Source: Alphaproteobacteria bacterium
GTDB taxonomy: Bacteria > Pseudomonadota > Alphaproteobacteria > UBA9219
Assembly (NCBI GenBank): GCA_049697595.1
Contig: JBAVWC010000438.1
Location: forward strand, 1 to 56,143
Direction of reading: 5' to 3'
DNA length: 56,143 nucleotides
The notes beneath the pieces are model-generated. The model was not told where the DNA came from. It saw nothing but the letters and a program-made list of their open reading frames with translations, and did not search any database. Positions 16,808-26,425 of the stretch are shown here, piece by piece. Position 1 is the stretch's first letter; the number at the start of each line of letters is the position of its first letter. The translations under genes were made by a program, and so were the position numbers.

Positions 16808-16968
16808 TGGCAAGATACTCAGTAATGGTCAAATACACCATGCAACGCAAAATCAACGTCTATGCAGATGATGAAACAGAGGCCGAAGAAAAGGCTTGCG
16901 ATGTTGTTCTCGGCTGGAAAGACGTTGATGATGCAGAAGCCGTGAAAGGCGAAACAGAGGAAATATGA
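16807..16968 (+). CDS. hypothetical acidic protein (53 aa)
   Basis: Hand translation: MARYSVMVKYTMQRKINVYADDETEAEEKACDVVLGWKDVDDAEAVKGETEEI. TAATG and ATGA overlaps with its neighbours. Confidence 0.5.
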   Translation: MARYSVMVKYTMQRKINVYADDETEAEEKACDVVLGWKDVDDAEAVKGETEEI

Positions 16969-17459
16969 ACTACAACGAAATAGATACCGGCATATCTCAA
17001 ATCGCCATCGACATGGATAAGACGTGTCCTGAATGTGGTGAGAAGGGTGTTACCGGAAACGGCGTATGTCTTTCGTGCATGGTGAAGATTGTTAAAAATG
17101 AACGCATGAAAACAACCGAAGGCATGAAGGCACAGTTAAGAGTATTGGAAATTCAGGAAAACACGAGGAACAAAATGAGAGCAGCAATGGGACATAATAG
17201 CGATAAAGCCGATCCAGAAGAAACCGGCGGCATCTCCGGCGAACGTCTCATGTCGTTTGTCAAGCGCATCGAAAGTTTGAACGCCGACAAGGAAGCTATC
17301 TGTGATGACCTGAAAGAAGTATTTGCGGAATCCAAAGCCGTAGGATTTGAGAACAAAATCATTCGCCAAGTCGTGAAACTGCGGAAACTCGACGTTGAAA
17401 AACGCCGCGAGAACGAGGAACTCCTATCTCTGTATATGTCAGCTATTGGTATGGAATAA
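16965..17459 (+). CDS. gapR: zinc-ribbon / GapR (DUF2312) fusion protein
   Basis: 164-aa ORF. The N-terminus has CPECG...CLSC. The C-terminal GERLMSFVKRIESLNADKEAICDDLKEVFAESKAVGFENKIIRQVVKLRKLDVEKRRENEELLSLYMSAIG aligns along its length with Caulobacter GapR. Confidence 0.82.
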   Translation: MNYNEIDTGISQIAIDMDKTCPECGEKGVTGNGVCLSCMVKIVKNERMKTTEGMKAQLRVLEIQENTRNKMRAAMGHNSDKADPEETGGISGERLMSFVKRIESLNADKEAICDDLKEVFAESKAVGFENKIIRQVVKLRKLDVEKRRENEELLSLYMSAIGME

Positions 17460-17464
17460 TCAGA

Positions 17465-17527
17465 ATCCGCTCTGAGTAGAGCGCGGATACACAGGGCGGC
17501 AGATGCAATGTTTGTCGCCCTGTTTTA
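17465..17527 (+). terminator. candidate terminator (two hairpins, second followed by TTTTA)
   Basis: Hairpin 1 pairs ATCCGCTCT with AGAGCG(C)GGAT (17465-17488). Hairpin 2 pairs CAGGGCG (17492-17498) with CGCCCTG (17516-17522) and is followed by TTTTA. Confidence 0.4.
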
Positions 17528-17550
17528 CGCCCCACCAGGAACACCACCGA

Positions 17551-17991
17551 ATGCGCCACTCAAAATACTCCCCCTCCACCATCCTCCAAATCCGCAAAAA
17601 GGCTCTAACCATGACAGCCCAACAGCTTGCATTTGAATTTGGCGTATCGAAAAACGCGATCATCGGGTTATGCCATCGTGAGAAAATACCGTTGACGGCG
17701 TTTTCCAAACAGCATCCTTGGAGCATGGCGAAAGAGAAAAAGAAACCCGTGGCGTTGCGGAAGGCCATTGTGCTGCATGAGGGTAATATCAAGAATATGG
17801 ATTGCAAGCCGCTGCCGCCACAACACGGCGAGGCTGGCGGGGTGTGGGCTTCGGGAGGATGCCTAGAAGTCATAGGGAGTAGCCGTGGCAGCAATATTAT
17901 GGGCTGCTGTCGCCCTACTGTTGGCGATGGGACGTATTGCGCCGATCATGAGAGGGATAATCGGCCTAATTCGAGGGTGGTGAGGAAGTGA
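17551..17991 (+). CDS. gcrA: GcrA-like cell-cycle regulator
   Basis: ORF 17503..17991 trimmed to the ATG at 17551. ILQIRKKALTMTAQQLAFEFGVSKNAIIGLCHREKIP matches the GcrA N-terminal DNA-binding domain. The C-terminal CCRPTVGDGTYCADHE matches the GcrA C-terminal Cys motif. Confidence 0.78.
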   Translation: MRHSKYSPSTILQIRKKALTMTAQQLAFEFGVSKNAIIGLCHREKIPLTAFSKQHPWSMAKEKKKPVALRKAIVLHEGNIKNMDCKPLPPQHGEAGGVWASGGCLEVIGSSRGSNIMGCCRPTVGDGTYCADHERDNRPNSRVVRK

Positions 17992-18557
17992 TGATGCCTT
18001 GTAATGTGGTGCAATTTCCTGTGACACAACCAGAAGAAACGCGAGATGAGACTATCTGTCGCTTGTGGCGTGAGGGAATGTCATCAACAAAAATTGCCGC
18101 CAGTTTATCTATTTCTAGGGGCGTTGTGTCCGGCGTTATATGGCGCAACAAATTGACAAAGAACCCAGGAAGCCAGACACGAAAACAAGAAGTACAATCA
18201 GTGTCTTTGCAGGAAGCACCCGTTGAAGCATGGCAACAGGCTGTCTTGCCGAAACTTAGGAAAGAGGCAAAAGAATTGGGCTTCAAGAACGATGATGCTT
18301 ATATTTCTTTAATTCTTATCCTGCTTAAAGAACGCGCTGGTTGCGATTGGCTTCATCATGTCACTGGAATTGATATGGAGAAAATCAAAAAGTTTTCGGA
18401 TCGCGTTAGTAGGGCGGGAATAATATGGGAGAACGGCAAGCCGAATGTTGAGATAAATACTGATATCGACATGATTTTATGGAGTGGATTGCTTGATGGA
18501 ACGTTTTACCGTACGAGGGATGATAAGTGGGGAGCTGGGGATATTTTGGAACAGTAA
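17991..18557 (+). CDS. second GcrA-N-domain-like protein
   Basis: ORF track, start taken at the ATG at 17991 (TGATG overlap). ICRLWREGMSSTKIAASLSISRGVVSGVIWRNKL matches only the GcrA N-terminal domain. The C-terminal part is unrelated. Confidence 0.62.
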   Translation: MMPCNVVQFPVTQPEETRDETICRLWREGMSSTKIAASLSISRGVVSGVIWRNKLTKNPGSQTRKQEVQSVSLQEAPVEAWQQAVLPKLRKEAKELGFKNDDAYISLILILLKERAGCDWLHHVTGIDMEKIKKFSDRVSRAGIIWENGKPNVEINTDIDMILWSGLLDGTFYRTRDDKWGAGDILEQ

Positions 18558-19677: not shown

Positions 19678-20427
19678 ATGACCGCATACTATAACGAATG
19701 GGAGCCATACCCAGCGCAATGGCTCCGCAACCTAATTAAAGCCGGATTGATCGCGCATGGCGATGTCGATGAACGCAGTATAAAGGATGTTAAAGCCGAT
19801 GACCTCAAAGGATATGCCCAATGCCACTTCTTCGCCGGGATCGGTGGATGGTCTTATGCTCTACGCCTTGCAGGATGGTCAGACGACAGCCCTGTTTGGA
19901 CAGGAAGCTGCCCATGTCAGCCCTACAGCATTGCCGGCAAAGAACTCGGACAAGAGGATGAACGCCATCTCTGGCCTTCCTATTGTGACCTCATCAAAGA
20001 GTGCAAGCCTTCAATCATCTTTGGAGAACAGGTTGTTGGAGCGATTAGTCATGGATGGCTCGACGATGTATGCGGCGACCTTGAAGGAGAAGGTTACGCC
20101 ACGGCGGCGGCGGTATTGCCAGCTTGTTGTGTCGGCGCAGAACATGAAAGAAAAAGGCTATGGTTCGTTGCCGACTCCGAACGCGAGGGACGGGAAAGAT
20201 TTGAGCACGACTACCGCGTATCTAGCAGCGCGAGGGAGGCATACGCCGAGTCTGGCCACCCATTTTTTATCGCTAGGCGTGCTGTGGCAAAAGATTTCTC
20301 ACATCTACGGCAGCGCGATGGGGTATCCGTCAGCGTGGAACGATCTTGCATCAAAGGATACGGCAACGCAATTGTCCCGCAAGTCGCGGCTCAATTCATA
20401 GAGGCTTTTATGGAGGTAAGACCATGA
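19678..20427 (+). CDS. DNA (cytosine-5) methyltransferase, frame-0 reading
   Basis: 249-aa ORF carrying motif I HFFAGIGG, IV SCPCQPYS, VI GEQV, VIII GAEHERKRLWFVA and X GYGNAIVPQVAAQFI. See the findings for the +1-frame anomaly between motifs VIII and X. Confidence 0.85.
   Translation: MTAYYNEWEPYPAQWLRNLIKAGLIAHGDVDERSIKDVKADDLKGYAQCHFFAGIGGWSYALRLAGWSDDSPVWTGSCPCQPYSIAGKELGQEDERHLWPSYCDLIKECKPSIIFGEQVVGAISHGWLDDVCGDLEGEGYATAAAVLPACCVGAEHERKRLWFVADSEREGRERFEHDYRVSSSAREAYAESGHPFFIARRAVAKDFSHLRQRDGVSVSVERSCIKGYGNAIVPQVAAQFIEAFMEVRP
19787..20401 (+). other. nested +1-frame ORF carrying the PTPxARDxK and MGYPxxW methyltransferase elements
   Basis: 204-codon open frame lying entirely inside the C5-MTase gene. 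LPTPNARDGKD is at 20168-20200 and MGYP at 20318-20329. Third-position-only differences from the paralog fall in this frame. Confidence 0.45.
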
Positions 20428-23779: not shown

Positions 23780-23968
23780 TTATCGGTCATGCTCTAGCTC
23801 CCATATTTTTCCTGATAACTGCTCGATGCAATCAGCCGCACTTTCCAGCAAACGAGCTTCGCCACTTCCGCTATCCAGTTTAAGCAAATGCGCCGCAAGG
23901 TTATTTAGCCCCTTGACAATATCTGCGTCAATTTTGGCTATTTTCGTCGTTACTGGTTTGTCGGTCAT
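23780..23968 (-). CDS. hypothetical protein (62 aa)
   Basis: ORF 23780..24058 trimmed to the ATG at 23966-23968 (ATGA overlap with the upstream MTase stop). Confidence 0.5.
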   Translation of the reverse strand: MTDKPVTTKIAKIDADIVKGLNNLAAHLLKLDSGSGEARLLESAADCIEQLSGKIWELEHDR

Positions 23969-24585
23969 ACTGCCCTCGGTTTCATAAAAACATACCAGTG
24001 AGTGAATCCTTGCCGTCCAGTTAGATGTCCGAAAAGCGGTTTGATGTCTGTCAGGCATAAAACCTCTTTGACTTTAATTTGAGTTTCGTTCCATTTGAAA
24101 ACCAAAGTGCCGTCTGCATCGAGAACTCGGAAGCATTCAGATAAACCTTTCTTGATGTCCTCTCGCCAATCGGCAGATAGTTTGCCATATTTCTTCGCAA
24201 GCCAACTCTTGTCGCCAGCCGTCTTTAGATGCGGCGGGTCGAACACGACTAGTTTGAAATGCCCATCAGGAAAGGGTATGTCTGTGAAGTCCATTAGAAT
24301 GTCTGGATGAATTTTCAGGCTGCGTCCGTCGCATAGGATGTGTTCTTCATCGCGGATGTCTCCAAAAACAACATCAGGATTCTTTCGGTCATTCCAGAAC
24401 ATTCTGCTTCCGCTGCAAGGGTCGAGGACTCGCCGTTTCGGCATCTTAGATTCCACCCTTGGCGTAGCTTCGCTGTTCCGTGCAGGCGCACAGCTTGAGT
24501 TCTCGCCTTGTAAGCCTCCTCCGGTAGCCGCCGCCGGAGTGCGAGATACGGTGGAATTATTCGTCGTTACTGATTTCTCACTCAT
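23965..24585 (-). CDS. amino-methyltransferase (N6-adenine or N4-cytosine type, DPPH motif)
   Basis: 206-aa ORF with motif I-like VLDPCSGS followed by motif IV VVFDPPH. The start ATG overlaps the stop of the C5-MTase (ATGA). Confidence 0.72.
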   Translation of the reverse strand: MSEKSVTTNNSTVSRTPAAATGGGLQGENSSCAPARNSEATPRVESKMPKRRVLDPCSGSRMFWNDRKNPDVVFGDIRDEEHILCDGRSLKIHPDILMDFTDIPFPDGHFKLVVFDPPHLKTAGDKSWLAKKYGKLSADWREDIKKGLSECFRVLDADGTLVFKWNETQIKVKEVLCLTDIKPLFGHLTGRQGFTHWYVFMKPRAV

Positions 24586-25223
24586 ATTAAATCTCCTTCT
24601 GCTTTGAGGATCGCTTCCCCGATGATCTGCGCGATTTGAGGAACGATGCTGTTTCCGAGAGACTTAAGGCGGTGTACTCGCAGGGGTATCCCATTAGCCA
24701 CTCGACCCACGTCGGGTTCAACGCCCCACCAGCGTGCGATGCGAGTGTCTTCGAGTTCCTTGCTAATTCTGCCGGAGAGTGTCCGTTGTCCTTCCAGTCC
24801 CTCGCGCATGGCGTTGGGTACATGTGAACTTGGTTTCTCAGTCTGCATCCGCTCGTCTGGCCGTTCTCTGTATATTTTAGCCAGCTCTCTTTGCTGCCTA
24901 TCCTTGCTGCATCCTCGACCGTTGGGGTTTGCCACGATCCAGACCCTATCTCTTTTGTGGGGAGCACCTGCCGCGGAAGCGGGGATACAATGCCATTCCG
25001 CATCATACCCGATCTCAGCGAGTGACCCGAGAACTTCTTCCAATCCGCGAGAGCGAAGGGCTGAGACGTTTTCGATGATGACGTAGTGCGGCTGCGCTTC
25101 TTTGATGATGCGGAGGTACTCGAACCAGAGGCCGCTTCGCTCCCCGGCAAGCCCTGCGCCTTTTCCCGCGAGGCTGATGTCTTGGCAGGGGAAGCCTCCG
25201 GCAATAACGCTGCTTTCCATCAA
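24582..25223 (-). CDS. DNA (cytosine-5) methyltransferase, motifs IV-X (lacks motif I in this frame)
   Basis: 213-codon ORF with motif [35 protein letters not shown] and [19 protein letters not shown] stop lies 4 codons upstream of its first TTG/ATG. Confidence 0.8.
24587..25204 (-). other. nested +1-frame ORF carrying [16 protein letters not shown] and [13 protein letters not shown] elements
   Basis: 205-codon open frame inside the C5-MTase gene, in the same relative (+1) frame as in the plus-strand paralog. PTP block is at 24788-24820 and MGYP at 24683-24694. Confidence 0.45.
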
Positions 25224-25383
25224 GTGTTGTTACGTCATCGTGGCAGGGAATATCCGGCCAGTGTTTCTTTAGAACGGCTTGGCAGAACGGTTCACGTTCG
25301 CAGAAAGCGACCGTTGTCATTCCCGCCGCTTCGAGGCCGAGCGAGAAGCCGCCTATGCCGGAGAATAGGTCAAGGACGCGCAT
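25015..25383 (-). CDS. C5-MTase N-terminal fragment (motif I), out of frame with the rest
   Basis: The ATG at 25381-25383 is preceded by SD-like [60 protein letters not shown] is MTase-like. After about 25225 the frame reads Arg/Pro-rich filler until the stop at 25015. Confidence 0.6.
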
Positions 25384-26348: not shown

Positions 26349-26425
26349 CTGAATGTAGCTCAGCTTGGTAGAGCATCGCGTTTGGGACGCGAGGGTCGTA
26401 GGTTCAAATCCTGCCATTCAGACCA
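26349..26425 (+). tRNA. tRNA-Pro (anticodon UGG), CCA encoded
   Basis: Hand-folded cloverleaf. Acceptor stem CTGAATG/CATTCAG, D arm GCTC-AGCTTGGTA-GAGC, anticodon arm TCGCG-TTTGGGA-CGCGA, variable loop GGGTC, T arm GTAGG-TTCAAAT-CCTGC, discriminator A, then CCA. G37 is as in Pro tRNAs. Confidence 0.9.

Follow-up and report, generated by a model that had tools for sequence, protein, structure and literature searches.

How can a gene for a C5 cytosine DNA methyltransferase (C5-MTase) keep its catalytic motifs in one reading frame and its apparent recognition domain in another? The question is raised by a minus-strand gene, here called paralog 2, in a 56,143-nucleotide (nt) stretch of an Alphaproteobacteria bacterium assembly (contig JBAVWC010000438.1), hereafter the window, which also holds a second such gene, paralog 1, on the plus strand. 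In paralog 2 the catalytic motifs are read in frame A, and the recognition-like region is read in frame B, which is +1 relative to frame A; the preliminary description of this DNA spoke of a conserved recoding or overlapping-gene arrangement. We consider it likely that the layout represents nested same-strand overlapping genes for a two-subunit C5-MTase of the M.EcoHK31I type. The alpha chain would be read in frame A, through a non-conserved spacer that is predicted to be disordered in an orthologue, to motif X. The beta chain would be read in the +1 frame from a start of its own, which would lie close to motif IV and/or be the ATG formed by the GYD codons of motif VII, and would supply a WPTP-type recognition region and motif IX; alpha and beta would then assemble into the active enzyme.

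Paralog 2 is a C5-MTase (PF00145): motifs I (FxGxGG), IV (PCQ), VI (ENV), VIII (RxR) and X (GN..VP) can all be read directly, and frame A matched PF00145 with E=6e-32. An open reading frame (ORF) listing and direct reading agreed with the preliminary description on the coordinates and motifs of frames A and B and the 205 open codons of the latter, on the overlap of the frame A stop with the ATG of the downstream ORF, and on a plus-strand paralog with the same layout (Table 1). Between motifs VIII and X, frame A of paralog 2 is a spacer without conservation. Frame B terminates inside motif X or ahead of it and matches the PHROGs family phrog_1008, and its approximately 90 N-terminal codons are a stop-free shadow of alpha motifs IV-VIII. 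Measured from stop to stop, the +1 open runs of paralog 2 (210 codons) and paralog 1 (205 codons) were longer than in any of 2000 synonymous-codon shuffles, whose maxima were 204 and 172, respectively, and the +2 frame of both paralogs was ordinary in the same shuffles.

Substitutions were counted between the window and the orthologous loci L106 (NCBI contig VFSW01001477.1, 85% nt identity) and L107 (82%), and were summed over the three pairs. At A codon positions 1, 2 and 3 they numbered 10, 8 and 51 over motifs IV-VIII, 52, 16 and 16 over the last B module (147 nt, YPTPCARD...MGYPxxY), and 12, 6 and 16 from motif X to the stop. Because A position 1 is B position 3, the last B module is selected in frame B; its amino-acid differences were 6-8 of 49 in B and 14-19 of 48 in A, so that B is about twice as conserved as A. 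This pattern indicates that purifying selection switches from A to B and back to A. Among 77 loci, variability between motifs VIII and X was highest at B position 3, and amino-acid identity reached 0.42 in B, against 0.34 in A and 0.33 in the control frame; these totals, like the stop counts given below, include some loci in which a regular expression misplaced motif VIII, and their direction was the same after correction. On our reading of the sequences, the 'canonical' look of the non-selected frame is largely a shadow of the other frame: SGMMRNG derives from GYDAEW, SPAKTSAS from GFPCQDIS and SSRKS from IVPQV, as do LAD(T/A) from WPTP and VGRVA[HDN]G from WVEWLMG. Amino-acid composition did not discriminate between the alpha spacer and beta.

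Stop codons in approximately 76 related viral loci were compared with those in synonymous-codon shuffles that kept the protein of the selected frame. From motif VIII to motif X, frame A contained no stops where 234±12 were expected, and over motifs IV-VIII frame B contained 8 where 104±7 were expected; stop counts in the control frames were as expected. The depletion of B stops started about 10 codons upstream of motif IV, the observed and expected numbers in successive bins from upstream to downstream being 34/38.7, 7/35.6, 6/20, 1/41, 1/68 and 0/27. Both frames are thus kept open where they are unselected, which argues for two overlapping genes, since frameshifting imposes neither constraint. 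Of the two arrangements named in the preliminary description, overlapping genes are supported by this depletion in both frames, and recoding is not.

A frame B start codon upstream of motif IV was present in 74 of 76 loci, and an ATG was found there in 65. A candidate internal or alternative start is the ATG ATG that frame B reads from the TAT GAT of the motif VII GYD. The Tyr of this GYD is encoded by TAT in 63 of 75 loci, compared with approximately 34% TAT at other Tyr codons, and the loci with TAC mostly read TAC GAT G, so that a B-frame ATG stands at the site in most loci. At its other end, beta often, although not universally, stops 0-5 codons past GWTD, just ahead of the RLKxLGN of alpha. 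The junction sequences vary, and inspection by eye showed no slippery heptamer in common at either of them. We infer that both products are made, that beta starts at one of these sites and that the two chains associate.

The AlphaFold model of P0267, an intact orthologous alpha chain, had a predicted local distance difference test score (pLDDT) of 92-97 over residues 1-160 and of about 95 in the motif X helix; residues 168-231 had a pLDDT of 35-44 and no secondary structure. Foldseek superposed this model on M.HhaI over 163 columns with a root-mean-square deviation of 1.8 Å, and phmmer also gave a match to M.HhaI. The alpha N-terminal domain is matched by PDB 3g7u as well, the structure of a putative C5-MTase from prophage CP-933R (E. 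coli). The C-terminal block of frame B aligns to motif IX of M.HhaI (LHPRECARVMGYPDSY), and within the B family conservation is highest in the motif IX-like sequence. In an A-B-A chimera, motif IX from B is followed by motif X from A, colinear with M.HhaI; Pfam searches gained nothing from such chimeras relative to A alone, and motifs IX and X were not detected in them. Matches to chimera queries were considered as single-frame relatives and rejected, being alpha-type proteins whose coverage of approximately 100% came from a gapped alignment over the spacer. In the 952-amino-acid (aa) protein P0259, one frame encodes motifs I-VIII, many WPTP repeats, LNPEWVAWLMGWPVGWT and RLKALGNG, in this order. 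Unsplit versions therefore exist, and the B-type region is the genuine variable region plus motif IX of a C5-MTase lineage. The recognition-domain segment T250-L251-SAYGGG of M.HhaI resembles TLASHAGG of frame B, which we take as a lead only.

The nested layout is itself already known. M.EcoHK31I (E. coli HK31, YGGCCR) is a C5-MTase of two polypeptides (PMC2836561, PMC3404938), and methylation needs both chains (PMC2836561). According to Lee, Kam & Shaw 1995, as cited in PMC2836561 and PMC3404938, its beta lies wholly within the alpha gene in another frame. Alpha contains motifs I-VIII plus motif X and, as the papers describe it, the recognition domain, and beta carries motif IX; the first approximately 42 residues of beta are dispensable in part, and its translation can begin at internal Met codons (PMC2836561, PMC3404938). 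Similarly, in both paralogs and approximately 95 related loci, the beta ORF lies wholly inside the alpha gene in another frame; frame B carries motif IX, albeit with weak alignment scores. The likeness is one of architecture, feature for feature by the published description, with one exception weighed below. M.EcoHK31I is part of a restriction-modification system; the neighbouring ORFs that were scanned in the window contained no restriction-enzyme domain.

Other known systems resemble the locus less closely. M.AquI (Agmenellum quadruplicatum) is a natural two-polypeptide C5-MTase that is split in the variable region, as cited in PMC3404938. Its small subunit carries motifs IX and X and is encoded downstream of the large subunit, whereas here motif X is in alpha, continuous with motifs IV-VIII, and beta is nested, so that an arrangement of the M.AquI type was not found. 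M.HhaI, M.HaeIII and P0259 share with our locus the same catalytic motifs and the order of motifs I-VIII, recognition domain, IX and X; each of them is a single polypeptide in a single frame, and in P0259 the frame of motifs VIII and X also reads the intervening WPTP repeats and LNPxWVxWLMGWPxGWT, whereas here the recognition domain and motif IX lie in the +1 frame. In phage lambda, the gene Rz1 lies inside Rz in the +1 frame, and their products form a complex. The present layout is similar in that a phage gene is wholly nested in the +1 frame of another and in that the products would be partners. It differs in that the proteins and their function are unrelated, that the nested ORF, with 200-350 codons in the loci examined, is far longer, and that the outer frame is a mere open spacer across the selected part of the inner one.

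The layout extends well beyond the window. In tblastn searches, frame A and frame B peptides matched the same sites in different frames in several phages (Paenibacillus, Acinetobacter, Lacticaseibacillus and uncultured), and the A/B pattern was present in all of the approximately 95 related loci examined, which comprise phages and prophages, including those of E. coli, and metagenomic viruses. The preliminary description had argued from the two paralogs that the pattern was not random sequencing error and had proposed looking for an open +1 frame in database homologues; the former is borne out, and the latter was present throughout. In the approximately 95 IMG/VR loci, the +1 frame inside the alpha ORF was open for 113-353 codons and the +2 frame for only about 25-157, and metagenomic B-type ORFs were located within full-length alpha ORFs. 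The B product had 152 homologues, and a profile search with it yielded 42,039 clusters (50% identity) at E<=1e-3, a number that fell to 26,946 at E<=1e-10; 18 of 20 long top matches to the B profile had no Pfam domain. PHROGs holds a separate family for each frame, phrog_363 for A and phrog_1008 for B. The Paenibacillus phage records contain two nested coding sequences (CDSs), both named 'DNA cytosine methyltransferase', with no comment. A P2-like prophage of E. coli strain E21 (L109, 1500-2402) has the same nested +1 ORF (...WYTPTTN...WPTVTTQD...LNPAHSRWLMGFPPEWDD), and its RefSeq record, the one record checked, annotates the outer CDS only; metagenome gene callers at times call the inner ORF alone. 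Neither the phages nor the E. coli genomes searched by Megablast gave a match to the locus or to 24 kb of the window. Our literature search found no description of the nested layout as general among phage methyltransferases, nor of the motif strings, and this known kind of arrangement seems far more widespread and less well annotated than the searched literature suggests.

Several B-type loci have further peculiarities. The WPTPxAxDxK repeats in B-type products (P0122, P0226 and P0259, 885-952 aa, and others) range in number from one or two to more than 20. In L006/L007 (1949-2500), an HNH_3 ORF lies in the B frame directly before the beta ORF, with the alpha frame open for 520 aa from stop to stop; in L089, an HNH endonuclease ORF in the B frame follows the beta stop directly, and alpha stays open across a spacer of about 300 aa. 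These HNH ORFs form a third layer of nesting. Two proteins, P0032 (181 aa, 10 contigs) and P0124 (418 aa), have motifs I-IV from the alpha frame followed by B-type sequence, without motifs VI-VIII. They could be assembly errors, or variants that are naturally frameshifted or fused.

In paralog 2 itself, pairwise alignment to L106 and L107, both of which are intact, revealed a 17-nt deletion. The distance from 'TTL' to 'GGFPCQ' is at least 12 codons in all relatives, compared with 22 nt in the window. The deletion moves motifs I-III out of frame with motifs IV-X, leaving an alpha N-terminal fragment in a third frame, C, which matches PF00145 with E=2e-10 (profile positions 1-56), is identical to the N-terminus of P0267 and as it stands would continue in translation to a stop at 25015. 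The actual frame order in this copy is C/A/B/A, and from the alignments we judge the C-to-A shift to be a lesion and not part of the family architecture. The likely beta start of the orthologues is an ATG that opens the B ORF right after a stop in L106 (TAG ATG GAA AGC) and 3 codons past a stop in L107; in the window this ATG falls in frame A owing to the deletion. Because the deletion splits alpha, paralog 2 is probably a recently inactivated, non-functional copy, if the sequence is correct. Motifs I-VIII and X stand in one ORF in paralog 1 and in all relatives, whereas motifs I-III are displaced in paralog 2. Judged by its reading frames, paralog 1 is an intact copy of the same architecture, and its alpha ORF matches PF00145 (E=1.6e-19) and phrog_363.

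These data bear on several other explanations. Two programmed frameshifts, +1 after motif VIII and -1/+2 before motif X, would yield a single A-B-A polypeptide, which would be colinear with monomeric enzymes, both M.HhaI (motifs I-VIII, then IX from B and X from A) and P0259, and whose composition fits the order in which selection passes from A to B to A. However, frameshifting leaves unexplained both the open frame A across the B-selected region (0 versus 234 stops) and the approximately 90 open B codons upstream of the switch (8 versus 104 stops). The junctions vary, with no shared heptamer seen by eye, the stop of frame B past GWTD is frequent but not universal, and we know of no precedent for two efficient frameshifts in one gene; we regard this explanation as quite improbable. 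It is also unlikely that the frame B product, although a real protein, has no part in a methyltransferase and is, for example, an independent DNA-binding or anti-defence protein, with alpha working alone. Such a role would accord with the failure of Pfam and NCBIfam to recognize beta, and with an enormous variation in WPTP repeat number and B-type ORFs of up to about 900 aa, a range that would be unusual for a target-recognition domain. Alpha, however, has neither motif IX nor, from motif VIII to motif X, any conserved region; the end of beta resembles motif IX, P0259 has the same region in frame at that position, and M.EcoHK31I requires both chains.

That only frame A is functional, frame B being a decaying relic of a single-frame ancestor or a by-product of nucleotide conservation, is very improbable and is contradicted by the substitution, variability and stop counts. 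Much of B upstream of motif VIII does shadow conserved alpha motifs, as in the SGMMRNG/GYDAEW and SSRKS/IVPQV pairs, but substitutions between motifs VIII and X concentrate on B position 3, B being the better conserved frame there, and B is stop-free across approximately 95 loci and represented by the thousands of clusters found at the stricter threshold. Scarcely credible is the idea that errors of sequencing or assembly, or plain pseudogene decay, account for the frame changes. The 17-nt deletion, with its C-to-A shift, is specific to the window and could be either an assembly error or a true inactivating mutation; for the A/B pattern, such an origin is refuted by its recurrence in every relative with both frames open, and the window is otherwise well assembled, with intact long ORFs of up to 1779 aa elsewhere.

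Nested genes for a two-subunit enzyme thus remain our preferred reading, and several observations weigh against it. Frame B matched no family in Pfam or NCBIfam, and the beta alignment, used as a profile against the PDB, returned nothing at E<=10. Beta modelled alone by AlphaFold folded poorly (pLDDT 66, predicted template modelling score 0.27), and the motif IX alignments are short and weak (2.3 bits; E=0.017 in a single comparison). Shine-Dalgarno matches for a beta start are weak or variable, and the model implies a beta leader of about 90 residues without amino-acid-level selection, which is unusual. The exception to the likeness with M.EcoHK31I belongs here also: the recognition domain of that enzyme is placed in alpha, whereas here the conserved recognition-like region is in beta, and frame A between motifs VIII and X, being without amino-acid-level selection and predicted to be disordered, appears not to hold one. 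In the window, moreover, the alpha of paralog 2 is broken, and codon-phase entropy in the paralog 1 group (n=10) gave no clear signal, its variable region aligning poorly. The support consists of sequence comparison and predicted structure.

The neighbourhood is a phage replication and recombination module. GapR-like and GcrA-like genes lie in the replication module and suggest an alphaproteobacterial host, given where these regulators occur. A tRNA-Pro gene lies approximately 1 kb from paralog 2, and the ORF downstream of frame A contains a 'VVFDPPHL' motif, reminiscent of motif IV of amino-methyltransferases, and had no Pfam match.

Table 1. Positions in the window of the two methyltransferase paralogs, their motifs and neighbouring features.
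Feature	Position	Strand	Remarks
Frame A ORF of paralog 2, candidate alpha body	24582..25223	-	213 aa; motifs IV, VI, VIII and X; direct reading
Motif IV in frame A	25199..25173	-	
Motif VIII in frame A	24968..24930	-	
Motif X in frame A	24659..24609	-	
GNSIVP	24656..24639	-	Frame A
Frame B nested ORF, candidate beta	24587..25204	-	+1 of frame A; 205 codons
WQTPT	24934..24920	-	Frame B
MGYP	24694..24683	-	Frame B
Frame B portion under purifying selection	24671..24934	-	Recognition-domain-like region and motif IX; begins WQTPT
Frame B ATG ATG, candidate internal or alternative beta start	25001..25006	-	From TAT GAT, motif VII 'GYD'
17-nt deletion site	25209/25210	-	Pairwise alignment to L106 and L107; TACAATGGAACAATTGA in L106
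Alpha N-terminal fragment	25210..25383	-	Third frame (C), ATG 25383; motifs I-III; ends DVTTLDGKQ
ATG, likely beta start in orthologues	25218..25220	-	Frame A in window
Downstream ORF	23965..24585	-	Overlap with frame A stop, ATGA
Paralog 1 alpha ORF	19678..20427	+	249 aa; motifs I-X in one frame
Paralog 1 nested +1 ORF	19787..20401	+	204 codons; phrog_1008, E=1e-14
Conserved part of paralog 1 nested ORF	20165..20347	+	SLPTPNARDGKD...TPSLATH...MGYPSAWNDL
GapR-like and GcrA-like genes	16965-18557	+	Replication module
tRNA-Pro	26349-26425	+	Anticodon TGG

Beyond this locus, we propose tentatively that the nested layout could be the standard one for a very large clade of phage and prophage C5-MTases, with at least 27,000 hidden-frame clusters (50% identity), in which the specificity region lies wholly in the +1 frame and the annotated frame contributes only an open, disordered spacer there. 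If this is true, the clade would rank among the largest families in prokaryotic viruses with long same-strand dual-coding genes (200-350 codons in the loci examined), and one that has been missed by Pfam, NCBIfam and NCBI RefSeq annotation (the Prokaryotic Genome Annotation Pipeline, PGAP; one record checked). If beta holds the recognition domain, prediction of the methylated sequence from the annotated protein would fail. Natural long dual coding of this kind, with each frame selected in a different segment and kept open elsewhere, would also offer a benchmark for detectors of overlapping genes. The phage of the window itself carries two copies of such an enzyme, one of them intact and the other apparently broken.

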